From assembly GCA_039189765.1 (NCBI GenBank), contig JBCCYL010000004.1, positions 96,001 to 160,000 of the forward strand: 64,000 nucleotides of DNA, read 5' to 3'. The notes under the pieces were generated by a model, which was given only the letters and a program-made list of their open reading frames with translations, ran no database searches and was not told the DNA's origin. This stretch comes from Cyanobacteria bacterium P01_F01_bin.150. GTDB taxonomy: Bacteria > Cyanobacteriota > Cyanobacteriia > CAKZMO01. The position numbers and the translations under genes are program-made. Shown here one piece after another: positions 53,286-63,117 of this stretch; the stretch's first letter is position 1; the number at the start of each line of letters is the position of its first letter.

Positions 53286-54467
53286 ATGAGTAAGCGTCGG
53301 GCATTGCTAATCGGAGTTCCCGAGTATGAAAGTGAGGCGATTCAAAATCTACCCGTTGTTTGCAACGATCTAAAGCTGCTGCATGCCGCGCTGGAGAAGT
53401 CTGGTTTTGGGGTGCGATCGCTCGGTGAAGACGGTCAGTCCTATTGCCGTAGCAAGATCCTACAGGCACTGCGCCGGGAATGCCGAGAGGCCAAGGGGCT
53501 TGACGTACTGCTGCTCTATTTTTCAGGCCATGGCTTGCATTTTCGCGGGAAGGATTATTTGGTGCCCTTTGATGCCGAGCTGGATGATCCAGAGGCGATT
53601 GACGATTATTTAGTGCCTGTTGACCTTAGTCGTGAGATTGATCAGGCCCAGGCAAAAACGATTATTTTTGTTGTCGATGCCTGTCGCGAAGGCATCAAGC
53701 TGGACTTTAAGGATATTGCCCTCGCAGGCTGGAGTCGTGGGGAAATGAAACAGGCAACCCGCCGCAGCTTTGTGGTGGTCTTTGCCTGTGGTCCGGGGCA
53801 GACGAGCCAATATGTCAGAAAAGAGCAGGGCTTTAGTCTCTTTTCCCGTGCCTTGGCGGAGGTGATTGATCCACAGCATGCAGCCTGTACGTTGAAAGAG
53901 GTGCTGGATGACACCCAGGTGCGGTTAAATGCGATCGCCTCTGAACATAATAAAAAATCCCAGAAAATTTACTATTCCTTTGAGAGCGCCGTGGAGGAGG
54001 ATATTGCCTCACGGGTGATTTGTGACAGCGTGGCCTCCATCGCGGCCCGAGGACAAACGACCAATCCCTGGCTAGATGCTGTGGTGCAGTCACCGCTTTG
54101 GCCCCAGGAAGGGGAAACTGAACGCTGCCCGGTGGTCTGCATCAAGCGGCAAGTAACCAAAATTGTGTCCGCCTGCTGGCAGCAGTGGCAAGCCTCGGTT
54201 CAGATGTTTCCGGAGGATGCATGGCGCGATCAAAATCTGCCAATACGGGCGTTGGAGCTGCTGGGTCTGGTGGTGCCGCCATCGGGTCTTGGCACTGATG
54301 CACCTACAGGATTATCCCTGGCGGAAACGGCTCTAATTATCGCGGTGCCGTTTGTGCAAGAGGCTATATTGGCCAGTGGGATTGTCCAGACAGTAAAGAT
54401 AAAGCCGCTGGATCTGGAACTTTCCGATCTGGCTCCTTTATCGGATGACAAAATCTATAATCTATAG
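53286..54467 (+). CDS. Caspase-family (C14) protease with intact dyad, apparently C-terminally truncated
   Basis: RRALLIGVPEY, YFSGHG, VVDACREG, followed by a helical region (DAWRD...LSLAETALIIAVPF) that ends abruptly as GC falls. Confidence 0.8.
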   Translation: MSKRRALLIGVPEYESEAIQNLPVVCNDLKLLHAALEKSGFGVRSLGEDGQSYCRSKILQALRRECREAKGLDVLLLYFSGHGLHFRGKDYLVPFDAELDDPEAIDDYLVPVDLSREIDQAQAKTIIFVVDACREGIKLDFKDIALAGWSRGEMKQATRRSFVVVFACGPGQTSQYVRKEQGFSLFSRALAEVIDPQHAACTLKEVLDDTQVRLNAIASEHNKKSQKIYYSFESAVEEDIASRVICDSVASIAARGQTTNPWLDAVVQSPLWPQEGETERCPVVCIKRQVTKIVSACWQQWQASVQMFPEDAWRDQNLPIRALELLGLVVPPSGLGTDAPTGLSLAETALIIAVPFVQEAILASGIVQTVKIKPLDLELSDLAPLSDDKIYNL

Positions 54468-54801
54468 TGCATTCGGCCTCTATTTCTGCTTCAAGAAGGT
54501 CCGAGGCTCAAAATCCCAAGTCCTTACCCAAAAAAGGCCCCAAGCTCGAAGCTGAAGTTTTTACCAAAGCTCCTAACTAAGTCAAATACGTTCAGAAGAC
54601 GCAGTATAAATTGTCTAAAGGTGATGGATAGACGATTACTTGACGATCTGCTTACTCTGCCCTTAGAACAAGGGTTGTGCGATGTGAGTTGGATGAAATC
54701 ACAATTTTTGGACTGTTCAAGCAAAGAATAATCGTTCTGTTCAATACAGAAACTAGGATTGCAGACCTTGGTGAATTCACGTTGGCTTAATATTTCAGTG
54801 C

Positions 54802-55002
54802 TCAGACTGGTCTTGAATCATCTTGATCATCATCCAATAATCCAAAGATTGCCGTGGCACCAGCAATGGCTATTGCATTCGTCGTTGTGCTAAGCCGATC
54901 CTGAATCGAGGTTGGTTTTTCAAGTGTTGCGAGATAAATGCTTATCACAGCGGCAAGAGAAGTGATAAAGATTGTTATCTTCAATAATGCCTTTTTATTC
55001 AT
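54802..55002 (-). CDS. Small two-helix membrane protein divergent from the NACHT gene
   Basis: 66 aa, two hydrophobic segments, acidic tail. Confidence 0.6.
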   Translation of the reverse strand: MNKKALLKITIFITSLAAVISIYLATLEKPTSIQDRLSTTTNAIAIAGATAIFGLLDDDQDDSRPV

Positions 55003-55203
55003 AACTGAGCTCTATGTGGTGATATGTCAATTGGCGACTTTTTGAGTCAATTCTCATCTAGCTCTTAAAGATTTCAAAAGCTATCTACAACCAGCCTAAT
55101 AATCGAAAACGAAACAAGACATCTAATGGTTTATGCACCTTACACGAGAATTATGACACAGGATCCAAGCTAATCCAACAAAAAAACAGAAAAGTCAAGT
55201 CTT

Positions 55204-55250
55204 TTTGGTATGACTTTGGCATGACTTTGGTATTTTTTTGGCATTACTTT
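55204..55250. promoter_or_regulatory. Four phased 11-bp direct repeats (TTTGGYATKAC-like)
   Basis: TTTGGTATGAC TTTGGCATGAC TTTGGTATTTT TTTGGCATTAC, lying between divergent genes. Confidence 0.7.
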
Positions 55251-55395
55251 GCACTTTAAGGTGAAAATGGTATACTTTATAGACGAATCTGCCTGTACTA
55301 GTCTACATGAGCTTATGGATGAATTCTGCATATAAACCGTCAGTGCATCCAGCTTCTCTCAAAGGCAAGGCGATACTAAATCTATTTTTCGCCTC

Positions 55396-58011
55396 ATGAA
55401 ACTTTCTTCTAAAGGCAAAGAGCTTGTTCGGCTTTCACTAACCAATAAAGAGTGGACTCTAGAAAACCTTGCAGAAGCAAGTAATTTTTCAATTTCAACA
55501 GTCAAAAAATTCAGTGCAGGTGCTAATGTTCGCGACACTACTTTTGCAAGGATTTGTGCAACTTTAGGGATTGAGTGGAAACCTGCATCATACAGTCAGA
55601 TGACTGTACAAAAAAATGAGGATAATATATCTGAATTAATTGAAGCTAACCCTTCAGGCGATCAGCTTTCAATTAATTCTTTGAATTCTCAAAAAGTTGA
55701 AGAGTTTTTTATTAGAAATATTCAGAAGAAATGCCGCCAGAAAATCATCAATTATCATCACGATGATGTGATACTAAATGGAGACAGCATTGATATAAAT
55801 CAACTTTATGTAGATGTATATTTTTTTGAAAAACCAGAAAACAGATATTTTCATTCTGCTGAAGGTCTTTTGAAAAGATTTCGAGTACAAGAAGACAGAC
55901 TCATTCTCAGTAAACGTCTTCAAAATATACCAGGCTTAAATACTGCTACCACAAACTCCAAACTCATAATTTTAGGTAAACCTGGTGCTGGAAAGACATT
56001 TTTTTTAAAGCATTTAGCAGCAAAGTGGTGCTCTGGTGAATTTCATCCAGAATCTATTCTTATACTAATTCAATTTGAATTTATAAAAAATGATTTCTGG
56101 AATATGTTAAATACTTTAGACCAAGAATTAGGTCTAAAGGATTCATATGAAGTTTTAGAAATCGAGAATAAAATCAGCGAAATACAAGTAAACATTCTCC
56201 GTTCAAGACAGGAAAATAATAATTATAAAGATGGAGCTAGACTATTTGAAGCTCAATTTATAGAAGATAGAAGTGAGTACGAGGAAAAGAGTGTTAAATT
56301 AGAAAAAAAAATATTTTCAACAGAAATTCGAAATCTAAGTGAAAAGTTAGGGTCGTTTCCTCTCGTTCAACTTCTCGCAGCAGGAAAGCTTGTTGTTCTT
56401 ATGGATGGATTTGATAGAATTCCTACGGAAGAGTTACGAGTAAAAGTACAAGAGCAGATTATAGAAATATCAAACAAGTACCCTAAAAATAAATTTATTA
56501 TTACATCTAGAACGCAAAAAATTCCTGAAATCAATAACTTTAATTATTTTGAAATTTCAAAATTTAATCATGAACAGATTAAAAATTTTATCTGTAACTG
56601 GTTTAATTTAAGAAATAAATCTGAAACGTATACGCTTCAAAGGTGGGAAGAGATAAGAGATCATTTAATTAAATATCCTGAATTGAATGAAGTTGCATCT
56701 AATCCATTATTCTTAAGTCTAATATGTTTGGTTTTTGAGGATAACGATTCTTTTCCATCTGACTTAGCATGGTTTTACCAAAAATGTATTCAGTTAATGT
56801 TAAAGCCATGCATAGATAGACGAAAAGATAGTTTCAATAGAAGTAATGAAATTTATCAAAGTATAAATTCTGACGAGAAAGAGATGCTGCTGATGCAGAT
56901 TGCTGCTAATAAGTTTGTAGACCCCAACAATTTTGTTTTTTTTGAACAAGAAGATTTGGTGAGACAGATCAGTAATTATTTTCATCTAAACTCTTCTAGC
57001 GAAGGACTTGAAGTTTTGAGAAATATTGAAACGCAACATGGTTTATTGATTGAACGGGCTGATGGTATATGGTCATTTTCCCATTTTTCATTTCAAGAAT
57101 ACTTTGTGATTCAGTGGCTGAAGAGACTTACGCCTGAAGCTCTTGTTGATGTTGCTATTAATGAGACATGGCAAAAGGCTCTTACAAGATTGGCTCAGTC
57201 TCATCAATCTATCGATAAAGTTTTGAAATTGATAAAAGAAGCTGGCGAACAATTAGTATTTAGTGAATTAAAGATACAAAATATTCTTCAATGGATATAC
57301 AAAAGGCATTTAGCTATACGTAGCAATCATAAGAGCTATGCTGTGAGAGCTTTTTATTACATAAGTAACTTAATCATTAACGTTGAATGCGTTGATGAAT
57401 TAAATCTTGATTTTCATAGTTTGAGTCCTAATAAAATTGCGCTTAAATTAGATCCTAGGCTAGATCAATCAAGAGTTATAGAGCTAGATAGATTTTTGTT
57501 TTCTTTGCTATTCTATACTCGTAAATATTCTGTTTATGAGATAGTTGAAGACTCTTATAAATATTTTGAGATATCCTTTAAATATATATTGCAATTATCT
57601 TTAGATCCTGAATTTTCACAAAAAATCAAAGAATTTCAATCTAGATTAATAGAGATAAAAAAAAGAGGGCAAGATAGTAAAAGTGTAATCAAAGACTATT
57701 CTATGTGGAAACAAGATCTTCGGAAGGCAATCCTCTCGTATCGAGATTTAGGCCATGAATGGAAACTGACTGATGAGCAACAAGAGAAGTTAAAGCGCTA
57801 TTACGAGGTGAATAAATTTTTACTTTATATTTTAACTCTTGAAAGGCGAAGTAGTAGAGAGCTTCGCTCACATATCATTTCCACATTATTCCTTCCATGG
57901 ATAGAGATTCAGCATCGTCTGCCCTATCTCCATGACCGGATTATGCAACAAAAGGTCAATCTAAAACCAAAGCAGGAAATACAAATATCTGATGCAGGCA
58001 ATAAGGCTTAG
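55396..58011 (+). CDS. HTH-NACHT (STAND) NTPase with C-terminal helical domain
   Basis: XRE-like N-terminus, Walker A GKPGAGKT, Walker B LMDGFD, IITSR, NPLFLSLIC, HGLLIERA, FSHFSFQEYF. AT-rich. Confidence 0.9.
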   Translation: MKLSSKGKELVRLSLTNKEWTLENLAEASNFSISTVKKFSAGANVRDTTFARICATLGIEWKPASYSQMTVQKNEDNISELIEANPSGDQLSINSLNSQKVEEFFIRNIQKKCRQKIINYHHDDVILNGDSIDINQLYVDVYFFEKPENRYFHSAEGLLKRFRVQEDRLILSKRLQNIPGLNTATTNSKLIILGKPGAGKTFFLKHLAAKWCSGEFHPESILILIQFEFIKNDFWNMLNTLDQELGLKDSYEVLEIENKISEIQVNILRSRQENNNYKDGARLFEAQFIEDRSEYEEKSVKLEKKIFSTEIRNLSEKLGSFPLVQLLAAGKLVVLMDGFDRIPTEELRVKVQEQIIEISNKYPKNKFIITSRTQKIPEINNFNYFEISKFNHEQIKNFICNWFNLRNKSETYTLQRWEEIRDHLIKYPELNEVASNPLFLSLICLVFEDNDSFPSDLAWFYQKCIQLMLKPCIDRRKDSFNRSNEIYQSINSDEKEMLLMQIAANKFVDPNNFVFFEQEDLVRQISNYFHLNSSSEGLEVLRNIETQHGLLIERADGIWSFSHFSFQEYFVIQWLKRLTPEALVDVAINETWQKALTRLAQSHQSIDKVLKLIKEAGEQLVFSELKIQNILQWIYKRHLAIRSNHKSYAVRAFYYISNLIINVECVDELNLDFHSLSPNKIALKLDPRLDQSRVIELDRFLFSLLFYTRKYSVYEIVEDSYKYFEISFKYILQLSLDPEFSQKIKEFQSRLIEIKKRGQDSKSVIKDYSMWKQDLRKAILSYRDLGHEWKLTDEQQEKLKRYYEVNKFLLYILTLERRSSRELRSHIISTLFLPWIEIQHRLPYLHDRIMQQKVNLKPKQEIQISDAGNKA

Positions 58012-58249
58012 GGTTTAGAATTTTTCCAGGTTTCCTAATTTTTTTTTAACTAAGAGAAGGTTACTTGCTTGGCAAGCCACTTGTCAGATCCTGAAATCAG
58101 GAATGCATTTGCAGCGTTGCGAATTTTATCTTAAGAATTGACTAGCTTTCCCTTGTTCTCTATGTCTATGTGGCGCTCCTTTAAGGCTAAACCTATCTAT
58201 TCTTGTCACGGTAAAATAGCATTTCTTTTACAGGAATCGTTCTTTTTCC

Positions 58250-58870
58250 TCACTCCAAAAACTCCGATAGCTGAATCACTATACTTGGCAACGCAATCGG
58301 CTCAATCGAATCCTGAATGCCCAAAAGAATTTGAGACTGATATTCACCACCCTGCGGATTGCGCATAATCCAAACCTGGCGTTTCTTCACATCAACTATC
58401 CAGTATTCAGGGATATTTACTTGAGCATACAGTTGAGCTTTTTGCTGCCGATCAAACTTTAACGTTGAATTCGACACCTCAATTAGCAAATACACATCCT
58501 GTGGAGTAGGATGCCTGTCTCGATAGCGATTTTTATCAATGCGTACCACCGCAATATCAGGTTCTGGTTCAGAGTTTGGGCTAATGATTAACGGCAACTG
58601 TTGTCGAATCCAAGCTTTTCCCGCAAAGAGCAGCACAAACTCATTACCAAAGCTGGATGTCGTAGATGCATGAGGTGGTCCTTGTGGGAGTTTTTCGAGA
58701 ATATATCCATCAATAAGTTCAACATGTTCAGCTCTGCTGTGCCTTTGGCGATCGCCCTTATCTAAAATCCCCGCTGCAATCATTTGATGGTAATCCTCTA
58801 CAGTCCACCGTCTCTGAGGCAAGATATCTACGGCATCTTGGGCGTCTAGACTAGAACCTATTTGAATCAC
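58250..58870 (-). CDS. Uma2 family endonuclease with an 8-aa insertion
   Basis: RWTVEDYHQM, VELIDG, SEPEPDIAVV, LLIEVS, YAQVNIPEYWIVD. Confidence 0.9.
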   Translation of the reverse strand: MIQIGSSLDAQDAVDILPQRRWTVEDYHQMIAAGILDKGDRQRHSRAEHVELIDGYILEKLPQGPPHASTTSSFGNEFVLLFAGKAWIRQQLPLIISPNSEPEPDIAVVRIDKNRYRDRHPTPQDVYLLIEVSNSTLKFDRQQKAQLYAQVNIPEYWIVDVKKRQVWIMRNPQGGEYQSQILLGIQDSIEPIALPSIVIQLSEFLE

Positions 58871-59066
58871 CTGTAATCTCCCCTTTTGACTTGCACACAG
58901 GCATATTATTCAAAATCAACAACGGTGGGACTCATAGGATTTATGCTTCTACAGTATATCGTGCAGCCTTATCGAGCAGATTTAGAGAGAGAGTAGAGAG
59001 GTTCAATACGGTTGTTTCTCGTCCCGACTTCTGGTAGGCTCTCCGATTAAGCGTCCAAATTACGCG

Positions 59067-59143
59067 AAAAGCGTCCCCTAGATGTGGTTGCACACAGCTA
59101 GAGGACTATCCAACCCATCTGACCACGCAGACGGACTGGCTAT
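59067..59143 (-). ncRNA. Candidate cis-antisense sRNA (~77 nt)
   Basis: TGtCATAAT -10 at 59149-59157. Two stems pair fully only on the minus strand (G-U wobbles). Ends in a stem plus TTTT. Confidence 0.55.
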
Positions 59144-59246
59144 CAGGTATTATGACACCCCTGAACGCCATCCCATCTTGTTCTGCAATGATTTGGGGTG
59201 GCGTTTGACTTGGGCGCTCCGGAAAAAGCAAAACAGGAGTGTTCTA

Positions 59247-59570
59247 ATGACTACATCCACAAGCTTAGCCCATCGGCTCGGCGAATTTATGCAGCCCGAT
59301 AGCCTGGAGCAGGAAGGGGCCGAAATTTTGCGCATTGTCGCCATCGGCCCTCTTCCTGTAGTTAATCAGCACGTTATCCAGATGTACCAGCTCGGATACG
59401 CCCAGCCCCACGAGTGGTCCCGCCCGCTGCCCTATATCTACCCCAACCAAGTTATGCGAATTCTGACTAAGCGCAGCGCTGGAGGTAATCGTTTGGCCCG
59501 TAACCCAGCCGATAATCCGGCCAATAATCCAGCCGATAATCCAGCCAATAATCCTGGCTTAGACGGTTAG
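59247..59570 (+). CDS. Hypothetical 107-aa protein with long structured leader
   Basis: AGGAG RBS, core IGPLPVV...MYQLGYAQPHEWSRPLP...NQVMRILTK, C-terminal NPA(D/N) x4 from a 12-bp repeat. Confidence 0.7.
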   Translation: MTTSTSLAHRLGEFMQPDSLEQEGAEILRIVAIGPLPVVNQHVIQMYQLGYAQPHEWSRPLPYIYPNQVMRILTKRSAGGNRLARNPADNPANNPADNPANNPGLDG

Positions 59571-59600
59571 GAAATTGCGAGAACCTAACATGCCGCCTAC

Positions 59601-59679
59601 GTAGGATGGGCAAAACGAACGTGTGCCCATCAGGCATTGACTGTGGTGGGCACGTCCTAACGTCCTTTGCCCACCCTAC
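59601..59679. repeat. GTAG-type REPIN (same family as 17320-17398)
   Basis: GTAGGATGGGCAAA...TTTGCCCACCCTAC. Confidence 0.75.
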
Positions 59680-59727
59680 GCTGGTTTTTATGGTCTGGCA
59701 GATTCCCATTAGTCAACTGACAATTGA

Positions 59728-60088
59728 CAAAAAAATACCCGACCTGTTGATAGACCGGGGGAGTAGGCATTTAGAGTATTAGAAGGAGTTCAGAAGAAGG
59801 AGAAACGGAAAGTAAAACTTGTAAATGTTGTTCGTGTGTTTTTTGTGTGTATTAAATACTTCAGCCATTCCCCAAGGACTTCCTAAACGGCAATCGTGTT
59901 CTTGGTCAAGCAAGACGGTGATGGCTATCACTATGCCCAGAAAGGTGCTTTAGGCAATATGAGGCTATTGAACCTTCCGGCTGGGAAACGAGGTATGCCC
60001 TCCTACAGGACTGGAGCACTGGGAGGGATGGGGCTGATCGCTCCTTTTCCCACGATGTTCTTTGGGAGGCATAACTATCAATCAATCT
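59728..60088 (-). ncRNA. Candidate trans-acting sRNA
   Basis: TGcTAGGTT -10 at about 60095-60103, CU-rich 3' part with two CTCCTTCT motifs, terminator CCCGGTCT/AGGTCGGG plus T-run. The 5' end is uncertain. Confidence 0.45.
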
Positions 60089-60193
60089 CGCCATAACCTA
60101 GCATTCTCTCAAAATAGATTTTATTGCTTCGACAAACCCAGGTTACTGGCTGACTGACAAAAGTCTTGAAATCCTTGATTTTCCGTTCATGAC

Positions 60194-60315
60194 CCTGGCA
60201 ACTAGAAGTTGCAGCTACACAAACGAACTCCACCTCCGTGGACTATGTACATCAAGGGTTCTGATACCCCGCGTAGGCGGGTTTTGTTTGTGTAGCCGCA
60301 ATTTCAATTGCCAGG
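60194..60315. repeat. ~120-bp inverted-repeat element (REP/MITE-like)
   Basis: CCTGGCAA...GCAGCTACACAAAC pairs with GTTTGTGTAGCCGC...TTGCCAGG. Confidence 0.7.
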
Positions 60316-60351
60316 AAGGAAAGTTTCGTCAGTCAATCAGCCCACAAGTTA

Positions 60352-61032
60352 TCATAGGCCATCGATCTTTTCCAAGGATGCGAGGAAGAGGCGTAGACTG
60401 GGTTCGTGTTGGGAGAGCGATCGCAACCTCTTTCCATCCAACAATGGTTCACTCAATCGGTTATAAAACGCATAATTTTTTACAAATAATTTTCCTTTGA
60501 TTCCATGATCTTTTTCCAAAACATACTTGAGTGATTTTTCACAGCCTTTAGTTTTAGGCTTCTGGGGTATGGTGGATGCGTAGTGGGCTAGTAGCCAACA
60601 CTCGATGGAATGAACGCTGATACAGAAAATAATTTTCTCCTGATAATGCTCATAAAAACCAGCACTATTCGTATTAATATTCGCAATTAGCTTAGCGATA
60701 ATATTATCGACTACTGTCTCAACAGATAGCTCCTGATTTTCCCCATCTGCATGCGGGACATCAAAACCTGGATTGGGCGACACATCAGAGTCTATATGAA
60801 CAATCACATGCCGATTATTCAGAACAGCATCTCGAAATTGAGCTGTTTTCAAATACTCTAGAAGCATTTGCCAGCCGCCAAAATCCCGTTGCTTTTGGGT
60901 CGTTGCATCATAGGGCGGCTGCAAAGGTGCAACATCCTCGTCCAAGTCTTCATTATCGAAAAAGCCACACAGGATATTAGTAATAGTAACCTGATCGGTT
61001 ACGCCCTCACAAACTAACGCAAACTCTGCCAT
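60352..61032 (-). CDS. TOPRIM-like (DUF4276/RloB-like) putative nuclease partner of the ATPase
   Basis: VCEGVTD (TOPRIM-type Glu), HIDSD (DxD), SIECWLL. Starts 9 nt after the ATPase stop. Confidence 0.6.
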   Translation of the reverse strand: MAEFALVCEGVTDQVTITNILCGFFDNEDLDEDVAPLQPPYDATTQKQRDFGGWQMLLEYLKTAQFRDAVLNNRHVIVHIDSDVSPNPGFDVPHADGENQELSVETVVDNIIAKLIANINTNSAGFYEHYQEKIIFCISVHSIECWLLAHYASTIPQKPKTKGCEKSLKYVLEKDHGIKGKLFVKNYAFYNRLSEPLLDGKRLRSLSQHEPSLRLFLASLEKIDGL

Positions 61033-61041
61033 AGCAAATCT

Positions 61042-62295
61042 CTAAAAATTCTTTGGTAATCCACCCAAGTAGCCACGCAGAAACGCTTCCGATAGCTTTA
61101 ATTCTTCTCCTGTAGAAGAAACAGGTTTACTTTCAAGCCCAATCCGCTTTACCAGTGTGTGTCCTTTTCGGTTACGGGAGACCACAAATAACCGCTGGTC
61201 ATCATCTTCCAAATCTATTGCATCCAAGACCGCAGGGTTGTGGGCAGTTAAAAAGCACTGTTTATCAAACTTCTTAGCCAGCTTGACAATATCACCCACA
61301 ATTTTTGTGCAAAGTTTAGGGTTTAACGAAGCATCCACATTATCGATGGCAAAAATAGAGGGAGTATCTTGTGAAACCATCAGGGCCGCATAAAACAACA
61401 CGAACAAAAAACCTTCATTTGCGCTGCGCTGATCAAACCATGATTGTGTAAAACGATCGAAAATACTAATTCGTTCTTCCTCATCTATACTGTTCGAACT
61501 TGAGATATCAATATCTTCAAACCAGCCAAGCGCAGAAAGAGATTCTTTAATCGTTTCTAAGGGAATATCAGAATCATATTTATCCAATACCTTAATAAGC
61601 TTTAAGAGCCCTTCGCCATGAATTCCTAATGGTTCTATCTGGCCCTCTCTATACAGATTTCGTAGAGCGGTTTCTTCTGGAGAATAGATAATGATATTTG
61701 CAATAGGAATACGATTTTTCTCTTCTCTTAGCTTTGACCAGATTAAATCGAATAGAGTGCCAACATGGGCATAGCTTTCATCTCTTATTTCCTGACTTAA
61801 TAGTTTTGATAAGTCCGAGAGGCTTGGTTTTTCTCCAGAGTTTAATTCTAATAAATCACTAATGCTCTTCTGAAGAGTGTCTACTGCGCTATCAGCAGAC
61901 TCATTGTTTTTATTTTTGGCTAATTCATCGTTTTGAGCAGACTGTTCTATCGCTTCTGGTTCTATTCGGCAGGTCCACTTCGAATAGGGTCGGCCATCAT
62001 TTTCTAATTGATATGTCTTTTCTTTAGCGTCAAATTTTATCGTGATTTCAATTACCTGAGCCGGAACTGGTTCAAATGTAGACATCATTGATAATGGAGA
62101 GGTGACTCGGATGCCTCTATTCGCCAGAAATTCATTGTCAAGTTTATCGGCTTCTGCTGCAGACGCGAGGGCGATCGCCTCTAAAATATTGCTTTTGCCG
62201 CTGCCATTTTCACCAATAAAAATATTGACCCGCCCCACATCAAACTGGAGGTCAACGATGGATTTATAGTTTTTGATGCCAATTGACTCAATCAT
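61042..62295 (-). CDS. ABC-type AAA ATPase (AAA_15/AAA_21, OLD/AbiEii-like)
   Basis: IKNYKSI, GENGSGKSN, SANEG signature variant, FAIDNVDASLNP, LTAHNP. Confidence 0.85.
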   Translation of the reverse strand: MIESIGIKNYKSIVDLQFDVGRVNIFIGENGSGKSNILEAIALASAAEADKLDNEFLANRGIRVTSPLSMMSTFEPVPAQVIEITIKFDAKEKTYQLENDGRPYSKWTCRIEPEAIEQSAQNDELAKNKNNESADSAVDTLQKSISDLLELNSGEKPSLSDLSKLLSQEIRDESYAHVGTLFDLIWSKLREEKNRIPIANIIIYSPEETALRNLYREGQIEPLGIHGEGLLKLIKVLDKYDSDIPLETIKESLSALGWFEDIDISSSNSIDEEERISIFDRFTQSWFDQRSANEGFLFVLFYAALMVSQDTPSIFAIDNVDASLNPKLCTKIVGDIVKLAKKFDKQCFLTAHNPAVLDAIDLEDDDQRLFVVSRNRKGHTLVKRIGLESKPVSSTGEELKLSEAFLRGYLGGLPKNF

Positions 62296-62499: not shown

Positions 62500-63117
62500 A
62501 TGAAACGTATTGTTCAAGAGCAGTCCTACACCTTTAGTAAGTTTTTTGATCTAAAAATTGAGCCGAAAGACTTAGCCCAGTACTTTGGCTACTCATTTGT
62601 GCGAAAAAAGTTGAGACTACCCCGATATGAAGGGGATTTAGATCGGGTGGGTCCTTTGCAGGAACGGATTGAAGAAATTCTGCCCTATGCCTCATTGTCC
62701 AGCGAAGCCGCACGACGAGAATTGCTAATTTCTCCATTGATGTTGGATTTAGTTCACTATACAAAGGCTGAGATTTTTATTGAGTATGCCATCAAGGTTA
62801 GCGAACAATTACAGGGATCGCTGGACTATTTTTTAGAACGTTCCAGCTATTTGTTAGTGATTGAGGCCAAAAAGGAAGATTTAGACTACGGCATGACCCA
62901 GCTTATTGCCGAATTAATTGCCCTAGAGCAGTGGCAAGACCAAAAAGATCAAGTGTGTCTGGTCGGTGCTGTCACCACTGGTAAAATTTGGGAATTTGCC
63001 CGTTTACATCGGCCAGAGCAACGGATTGAACAGGGATTAGAAAGCTTCCGAGTTCCGGAAGATATTGAGCCATTAATGCGGATTTTAGTTCAGACGCTAA
63101 TGGGGGCTGATGACTGA
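62500..63117 (+). CDS. PD-(D/E)XK / HsdR-N-like protein
   Basis: SEAARRELLISP, GSLDY, VIEAKK, QLIAEL, GAVTTGKIWEF. Confidence 0.65.
   Translation: MKRIVQEQSYTFSKFFDLKIEPKDLAQYFGYSFVRKKLRLPRYEGDLDRVGPLQERIEEILPYASLSSEAARRELLISPLMLDLVHYTKAEIFIEYAIKVSEQLQGSLDYFLERSSYLLVIEAKKEDLDYGMTQLIAELIALEQWQDQKDQVCLVGAVTTGKIWEFARLHRPEQRIEQGLESFRVPEDIEPLMRILVQTLMGADD

Follow-up and report, generated by a model that had tools for sequence, protein, structure and literature searches.

We describe a small-gene module on the plus strand of a 64,000-nucleotide (nt) stretch of Cyanobacteria bacterium P01_F01_bin.150 (contig JBCCYL010000004.1, positions 96,001 to 160,000; called the window below), in which a gene for a 107-residue protein is probably controlled by an antisense RNA encoded within its own long mRNA leader. 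Positions 59005-59690 likely form a self-contained unit, from promoter to terminator, of which some filamentous cyanobacteria carry many copies per genome. Comparison of these copies supports both promoters, strand-specific structure on both strands, covariation between the Shine-Dalgarno (SD) sequence and a distal segment complementary to it (anti-SD), and hypervariability of the hairpin loops, and it indicates that the features of the leader are real and, for the most part, under selection. From these features we infer the ends of both transcripts, the route by which they pair and the consequence for translation. An initial annotation, made from the letters of the window, had proposed a sense promoter, a folded leader, an internal opposing promoter and an antisense RNA of two hairpins. 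A reading of 58700-59900 found every element of that description in its place, and the architecture as a whole is backed by covariation in 47 copies. The features of the locus are as follows.

59005-59011, plus strand: sharp 5' boundary (A/G-TACGG) of the conserved block, immediately before the sense -35; T3, A4 and C5 are invariant in the leader alignment
59012-59040, plus strand: sense promoter, with -35 TTGTTT (59012-59017), N17, -10 TAGGCT (59035-59040) and TGg before the -10
59050-59060, plus strand: 5' strand of stem P1, partner 59208-59218; seen in the minimum-free-energy fold of the window
59065-59142, minus strand: predicted cis-antisense RNA, about 78 nt if ending at the UUUU of the window, both ends being putative
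59073-59106, minus strand: antisense hairpin H2, 59073-59081 with 59098-59106, with an inner GUG/CAC and an apical loop of 6-7 nt; in the window 9 base pairs (bp) including 1 G.U, plus the inner GUG/CAC
59110-59139, minus strand: antisense hairpin H3, first in the antisense RNA, 59110-59121 with 59128-59139, loop 59122-59127; in the window 12 bp including 3 G.U
59149-59157, minus strand: antisense -10 CATAAT (59154 to 59149), with TGt upstream
59155-59163, plus strand: distal anti-SD (ACACCCCTG), complementary to 59234-59242
59164-59205, plus strand: leader hairpin H4, 59164-59175 with 59194-59205
59208-59218, plus strand: 3' strand of P1; its 3' part and the two next bases (GCGCTCC, 59214-59220) are able to pair with the SD
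59235-59239, plus strand: SD AGGAG, 7 nt ahead of the ATG at 59247
59247-59570, plus strand: open reading frame (ORF) of 107 amino acids (aa), with a beta-alpha-beta-beta core, a disordered N-terminus and an NPAD/NPAN repeat tail
59595-59690, plus strand: long 3' hairpin followed by UUUUU, the probable end of the sense transcript

Promoters and structure of the conserved leader

The genomic sample came from one scan of species-representative genomes, which returned 121 relatives; the best 80 were kept, representing 79 distinct loci. An nhmmer search with the upstream region of the window showed that a block of about 240 nt ahead of the gene (window 59005-59243) is kept in 47 copies from 46 sources, a single one of these copies being the window itself. 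In the other copies the matches start at window 59003-59005 and end at the SD. Counts given below for the sense promoter refer to 41 aligned copies, those from the covariance-model alignment to 47 elements, those for strand stability to 40 distinct copies, and those involving the SD to 31 copies in which it is retained adjacent to the leader.

The sense promoter is uniform among these relatives, with TTGTnT, a 17-nt spacer and TAnnCT each found in 41/41 copies. The promoter first proposed stands in its hexamers and spacing; its extended TG is confined to the window (1/41). Transcription from it would begin near 59047. From there to 59260 the sense leader folds at -74.1 kcal/mol (z -4.6, with 0/200 shuffles as good), and the leader of about 200 nt that had been drawn ahead of the AGGAG and the ATG at 59247 is both structured and kept across the 47 copies. 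Collecting homologs and examining the upstream region for covariation, which the initial annotation had named as a check, showed that this structure covaries. Translation signals are equally regular, GGAG being followed by ATG after 7-10 nt in 31/31 copies. A longer, 162-aa reading from an in-frame ATG at 59082 was considered as a conserved N-terminal extension and rejected, because the length of open frame ahead of the start differs between copies, from 3 to 210 nt. Tandem heptamer repeats of AAGGCGG/AAGGCAG type and about 80 further nt break up the leader in 10 copies, between the P1 3' strand and the SD, and a new SD and ATG stand downstream of them (L020, L025, L027, L028 in both copies, L032, L040, L042, L045 and L046).

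Evidence for an RNA on the opposite strand comes from folding and from substitution patterns. The minus-strand RNA of the window (59143 to 59062) folds as it had been drawn, at -35.1 kcal/mol (z -3.2, 1/200 shuffles as good). A covariance model, R1, built from 41 copies identified 47 elements, every one of them antisense to the gene; the remaining 34 sources had none. Over the two hairpins and the same alignment columns, RNAalifold gave -46.95 kcal/mol for the minus strand versus -34.18 for the plus strand, and when distinct copies were folded singly the minus strand was the more stable in 40/40 (mean -37.9 versus -24.8). Measured against mononucleotide shuffles of each strand, z averaged -5.35 for the minus and -2.62 for the plus strand and was lower for the minus strand in 40/40; base composition alone therefore cannot account for the difference in stability.

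The minus stems are paired in 95.3% of cells, compared with 83.5% after column shuffling and 39-54% with slid partners. Both sides are altered in 17 of their 24 pairs, the cells so altered numbering 139 against 38.7 expected, with 0/500 shuffles as high. Together the two stems hold 904 Watson-Crick, 148 G.U, 9 A.C and 43 other cells, and the claim that their departures from perfect pairing are wobbles on the minus strand is borne out across the family. H3 has 90.6% of cells paired, 11 of 12 pairs altered on both sides, and 91 G.U against 8 A.C; the corresponding values for H2 are 99.8%, 6 of 9, and 57 against 1, and its inner GUG/CAC is invariant across copies. The opposing promoter TGtCATAAT at 59149-59157 is present in the window as described, and a -10 of the form [TC]AnnnT lies at the same place, 3-10 nt before the first minus stem, in 43/47 copies (TAAAAT in 28 and CATAAT in 7, with a TGn extension in 9). 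This arrangement is consistent with an antisense transcript that starts at the foot of H3, near 59142. The locus is thereby predicted to encode an antisense RNA complementary to the mRNA of the gene, as expected of a type I toxin-antitoxin (TA) system.

The rest of the leader is structured on the plus strand. P1, which joins 59050-59060 to 59208-59218, has 96.9% of its cells paired and 5 of 11 pairs altered on both sides, with 17 G.U on the plus strand versus 9 A.C. H4, the third stem of the initial annotation (59164-59205), was rightly assigned to the plus strand: it is more stable there in 30/31 copies and carries 57 G.U versus 16 A.C, its inner 9 pairs (columns 169-177) being mostly kept and its outer 3 poorly kept. 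H4 and the run that follows it were also considered as a leader attenuator; this was rejected, as L011, L015 and L016 have no U-rich run at this place, and pairing in P1 accounts for the conservation of the segment.

Covariation supports an SD that can be sequestered by the distal anti-SD, which would pair 59155-59163 with 59234-59242. Cognate duplexes average -13.7 kcal/mol against -12.0 for non-cognate ones, 0/2000 permutations are as low, and the pairing is found in 31/31 copies tested, the flanks of anti-SD and SD shifting together between sub-groups. The local anti-SD, GCGCTCC, did not hold up as a general mask of the SD, with 164/2000 permutations as low and the segment missing in 7/31 copies; its pairing is 86.2% complete without clear covariation, and it possibly marks a second state of the leader. 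The pairing once suggested between TGCAAT (59184) in the H4 loop and GTTGCA (59087) is present in the window but is not conserved, and cognate combinations are no better than permuted ones (-5.83 versus -6.00 kcal/mol). For complementarity between the H2 and H4 loops generally, 758/1000 permutations were as low as the cognate value, and the analogy with the activating pseudoknot of IncI-type plasmids, which calls for conserved complementarity between a loop and the distal leader, lapses with it.

Loop variability and a model of control

The stems and the loops of the element have diverged at very different rates. The comparison covered 43 pairs of copies whose RNA elements share at least 95% of their non-loop positions (mean 98.1%). 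In these pairs identity is 97.6% over the first two codon positions of the ORF, 72.7% at the third and 55.8% in the apical loops. Set against the ORF values, the 98.1% implies that the noncoding element is as constrained as the protein sequence, far beyond synonymous sites. Loop combinations number 45 among 47 copies, the H2 and H3 loops are hypervariable across copies, and in the copy-rich genomes the H2 loops are all different (15/15 and 12/12 elements). This is the pattern expected if apical loops are the first points of contact and each antisense RNA has its own target; loops that are simply unconstrained would also fit.

A model of control can be proposed from these features. The sense promoter would give an mRNA with a leader of about 200 nt, the 5' end of which pairs with a segment 20-30 nt ahead of the SD in a closing stem; with H4 formed and the SD held by the distal anti-SD the primary transcript would be poorly translated. 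The promoter inside the leader would produce a minus-strand small RNA of two imperfect hairpins, fully complementary to the 5' third of the leader. This antisense RNA would meet its own mRNA first through the two copy-specific apical loops and then extend to a duplex of about 78 bp, which would lead to cleavage or would prevent the leader from refolding into a state open to translation. Only a shortage of the antisense RNA would then permit synthesis of the small protein. If the antisense RNA were to read through 59050-59060, its tail would have the sequence of the P1 3' strand and could displace that strand, which would free GCGCTCC to cover the SD.

Several observations weigh against this model. 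The pairing of anti-SD and SD crosses P1, and both would therefore need a pseudoknot, or an alternative fold with switching between the two. A scan for simple sigma-70 consensus promoters returned 0 sites at the locus, which means that the window alone gives weak support, and the main clade has no weaker copy than that of the window, which scores 84 bits and has one C.A mismatch in the anti-SD/SD pairing and a mismatch in P1. The TTTT tail that had been assigned to the antisense RNA as a canonical terminator is exceptional, a run of at least 4 U after H2 being found in 4/47 copies. The alignment used for the covariation counts was fitted to the structure of the model, and the copies are related, with the result that the shuffle controls overstate significance; the alignment-free tests, per-copy folding and z scores, agree with the covariation. 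The antisense RNA itself, the start sites and its 3' end are predictions. Taken alone, the window copy is suggestive, and it is the comparative evidence that is decisive.

The small protein and its possible roles

The 107-aa ORF has no match among Pfam-A, NCBIfam or PADLOC profiles. Its 28 close relatives (76-117 aa, most relatives having 78) are all cyanobacterial, are unnamed or called hypothetical, and share a start M-T-x-S and an invariant core. Profile searches gathered 384 proteins at E <= 0.001 in a 50% representative library and 690 at E <= 1e-5 in a 90% collection. Among 24 distant members, 23 have no Pfam family and the one that matches is an 879-aa repeat protein; longer or fused forms amount to one 220-aa protein without domains, and no activity is hinted at. 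AlphaFold2, given an alignment of 137 sequences, predicts a beta-alpha-beta-beta core with predicted local distance difference test values of 96-98 in residue blocks 31-70, a low-confidence NPAD/NPAN tail and a disordered N-terminus; the core conserved in family alignments covers residues 26-77. The tandem tail (59498-59560, plus strand) is shared with the two closest relatives; the other family members, about 25 residues shorter at this end, lack it. Foldseek against the PDB gave a best E of 0.37, with generic half-ferredoxin matches of ACT, NikR, MinE and KH type, none significant; the sequence profile had no significant match in the PDB, and the ESM Atlas returned only the family's own clusters.

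The initial annotation had suggested a toxin or defense effector. A toxin role of type I TA kind is possible for this protein, as read from sequence, though we hold it tentatively. The product had been described as small and non-hydrophobic, and the prediction agrees: the core is soluble and there is no hydrophobic helix, so that the membrane peptide typical of type I toxins is not seen here. Nor does the protein have a recognizable nuclease or other toxic fold. Relatives count 1 plasmid record, on a 1.2-Mb Kovacikia replicon, and 0 phage records, and nonsynonymous sites are strongly conserved, as in an ordinary cellular protein.

A second view, held just as tentatively, keeps the RNA architecture as described and takes the protein not to be a toxin. 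The gene would then encode a small protein with a regulatory or structural role, perhaps an ACT-like binder acting as a dimer, and an antisense RNA would set its dosage here, as a Cro/C1-type repressor would in the sister clade described below. A soluble, well-folded core, purifying selection (97.6% identity at the first two codon positions versus 72.7% at the third), the spread of a family of 384 representatives through cyanobacteria, the near absence of plasmid and phage copies, and many housekeeping neighbors all fit such a protein. Its difficulty lies in the 12-15 RNA-bearing copies per genome with private loops, which are hard to explain for a housekeeping regulator and are typical of selfish or defense-type modules; there is also no DNA- or RNA-binding signature in Pfam or in Foldseek searches of the PDB.

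Another explanation dispenses with the antisense transcript and takes the whole block as a sense-strand cis-regulatory leader, a 5' untranslated region (UTR) sensing a ligand, a protein or temperature, in which the hairpins of 59073-59139 act in the mRNA. P1, H4 and the anti-SD are indeed plus-strand features, and even the plus-strand versions of H2 and H3 beat their shuffles, with the z of -2.62 given above. We nevertheless regard this as improbable: in the mRNA the 148 minus-strand G.U cells would turn into A.C mismatches, and cells of the opposite kind number only 9, the minus strand is the more stable in every copy folded, a -10-like hexamer stands at a fixed distance before the first minus stem in 43/47 copies, and there is no match to an Rfam family (a scan of 57500-61000 with Rfam 15 by E-value gave 7 matches, all below the gathering score and none in 59005-59243).

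Least probable of all is that the minus hairpins are the 5' UTR or attenuator of the divergent upstream gene, a single-stranded DNA site for a recombinase or the end of a small mobile element, for although a minus transcript from about 59142 would head in the window towards a Uma2 gene (58870-58250), three Elainellaceae copies have a tyrosine-recombinase gene upstream and several copies lie at contig ends, the upstream neighbors vary in identity and orientation among other loci, the conserved block always ends just upstream of the sense -35, the orientation of the element and its distance to the small ORF are always the same, the alignments showed no terminal repeats (a search aimed at repeats was not made), and compensation of the G.U type points to RNA rather than DNA.

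Regulation of the gene takes another form in a sister clade. The 34 sources without the RNA element have conserved upstream regions of their own, and in 15 of those loci a gene of 70-100 aa for a Cro/C1-type helix-turn-helix (HTH) protein (Pfam HTH_26, E 1.8e-9) is divergent from the small gene; no RNA-bearing locus has it. These loci are L036, L044, L051, L054, L055, L057, L060, L064, L065, L067, L069, L072, L076 and L078, with L035 partial. The HTH gene lies about 150-300 nt upstream of the small gene, and instead of the antisense-RNA leader sister-clade loci have a conserved 10-bp hairpin just upstream of the SD. A poorly resolved tree built on the 54-column core gathers 41 RNA-bearing rows in one group of 44, whose other three members are loci truncated by the end of a contig. 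A separate group of 26 takes in all 15 HTH rows, and four divergent RNA-bearing rows lie near the HTH group with weak support. A type II TA organization, with a co-transcribed adjacent antitoxin gene, was not found: the window has no adjacent HTH gene, and in the sister clade the HTH gene is divergent, not co-transcribed. The presence of two different dedicated regulators before the same gene suggests that its expression must be held down.

Genomic setting and relation to known systems

One Elainellaceae genome has 15 RNA-bearing elements, another has 12 and a Crinalium genome has 4; the carriers are for the most part metagenome-assembled genomes. Around 45 RNA-bearing loci the 77 nearest neighbors are of mixed identity and orientation, and include RibBA, YchF, aldehyde dehydrogenase, aminotransferase, photolyase and DAHP synthase as well as TIR proteins, STAND NTPases, four Uma2 genes and three tyrosine recombinases. 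A conserved operon partner or defense context was accordingly rejected, since the neighbors differ among the 45 loci; the varying flanking genes imply that the module stands alone. The defense-rich patch of the initial annotation is real around the window copy and is local to it, forming no part of the module.

Within that patch, a caspase-like protein with an iHD-CE domain (53286-54467, plus strand) is followed by an 871-aa NACHT/STAND NTPase (55396-58011, plus strand) with a weak N-terminal HTH match, and 53286-58011 looks like the neighborhood of a conflict system. A putative endonuclease of the Uma2 family (58250-58870, minus strand) is divergent from the module. Uma2 genes adjoin 4/45 related loci, which we judge a coincidence because such genes are abundant in cyanobacteria. 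On the other side lies a match to PDC-M31, a candidate defense pair in PADLOC, spanning 60352-62295 on the minus strand: an ATPase gene (61042-62295) matches PDC-M31A (E 6.9e-72) and also AAA_15/AAA_21, and the adjoining gene (60352-61032) matches PDC-M31B (E 1.6e-9), with weak similarity to RloB/DUF4276. Beyond it, a 205-aa protein (62500-63117, plus strand) has no Pfam match, a PADLOC match to a "CAS associated" PD-(D/E)xK profile (E 4.8e-27) and a weak NCBIfam hint of Cas4. Elsewhere, in the Elainellaceae loci L027, L037 and L041, a tyrosine recombinase (Phage_integrase and a SAM-like N-terminal domain) lies upstream on the same strand, and these may be duplicated segments that include the module.

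The 3' side of the gene is also structured. The sequence 59571-59700 folds at -54.1 kcal/mol (z -4.4, 0/200 shuffles), and in sub-groups of relatives 75-100 nt that contain inverted repeats are conserved downstream of the stop. A canonical terminator conserved after the ORF was rejected, being seen in 10/45 copies only, and a simple terminator scan found one terminator-like site, outside the module on the minus strand (59759-59738). In the 780-nt gene-free stretch after the module, a sub-threshold Rfam match to CRISPR-DR28 (60265-60288, minus strand, 23.1 bits, where the gathering score is 35) probably reflects a chance palindrome.

By analogy, the control logic proposed here would match that of type I TA pairs with long, structured 5' UTRs. 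In tisB/istR-1 the long tisB 5' UTR itself hinders translation, and the antitoxin pairs far upstream in the UTR. For zorO/orzO of Escherichia coli, the full-length 5' UTR is likewise summarized as a hindrance to translation (PMC5397157). The predicted antisense pairing site at our locus resembles those of both pairs in its position, within a long 5' UTR and well ahead of the start codon. It differs in that both pairs have a separate, divergent antitoxin gene with short complementarity, whereas the RNA predicted here is a cis-antisense one with full complementarity over about 78 nt, and in that their small hydrophobic peptides contrast with a soluble protein of 78-107 aa. No sequence or family relation to either pair was detected in Rfam and Pfam scans.

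A second comparison is with modules in which folding of the mRNA sets its activity. In hok/sok, long-range mRNA pairing together with SD sequestration keeps the primary transcript inert. In aapA1/isoA1 of Helicobacter, a type I pair, mRNA folding is summarized as controlling translation (PMC5416894). Like these two, the module here is multicopy and chromosomal, with a predicted cis-antisense RNA against the 5' UTR, and is predicted to pair the 5' end of its mRNA over a long range and to sequester its SD, which would keep the primary transcript inert. In hok and aapA1, however, the 5' end joins the 3' end of the whole mRNA and 3' trimming activates it, whereas P1 closes the leader only; their toxins are membrane-acting peptides of 30-50 aa, and the protein here is soluble and larger.

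Closest in its product is symE/symR of E. coli, a type I pair with a soluble toxin of about 110 aa and a cis-antisense RNA against the 5' region. The present locus shares a soluble protein of similar length and a predicted cis-antisense RNA. SymR, however, overlaps the start and SD of symE, whereas the antisense RNA here would lie 100-180 nt upstream of the start; and the SymE fold is AbrB-like, whereas the beta-alpha-beta-beta unit here has no significant structural match and no Pfam match. In CopA/CopT of R1, RNAI/RNAII of ColE1 and the Inc RNA of IncI plasmids, the loop sequence sets the speed and specificity of pairing, and among such copy-number antisense RNAs loop changes create new specificity groups. 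The module described here is like them in setting a stem-loop antisense RNA, as predicted, against a leader, with copy-specific loops; they control plasmid replication genes, and this module is chromosomal.

To our knowledge, almost all known antisense-RNA-controlled toxin modules encode membrane peptides. In cyanobacteria such modules are barely described, according to the abstract of the report of msoT1/msoA1 from Microcystis aeruginosa, a candidate type I TA system that is there called the first in the phylum (2025) and that came out of de novo searching in a single genome, with tests in E. coli (PMC12390103). Both it and the present family are cyanobacterial candidates, from different organism groups, and they are set apart here by the description in that abstract. 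Titles and abstract openings in the literature on cyanobacterial type I TA systems and antisense RNAs contain no description of the family, which, for a protein without a name, is weak evidence.

What emerges is a comparatively well-supported RNA/RNA control module around a soluble protein without a significant fold match, from which several hundred hypothetical proteins gain a testable role. With stems frozen beyond synonymous sites, loops free to vary and 12-15 RNA-bearing copies in some genomes, the family is a natural experiment on how antisense specificity is encoded. The fullest interpretation, a large new cyanobacterial family of type I TA systems with a soluble toxin of new fold, an address code in the loops and an exchange of antitoxin in the sister clade, is one that we consider doubtful. 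If it is true, the loop code would let a dozen or more near-identical copies coexist in one genome without cross-neutralization, and the sister clade would have exchanged its RNA antitoxin for a divergent protein regulator of the Cro/C1 type.

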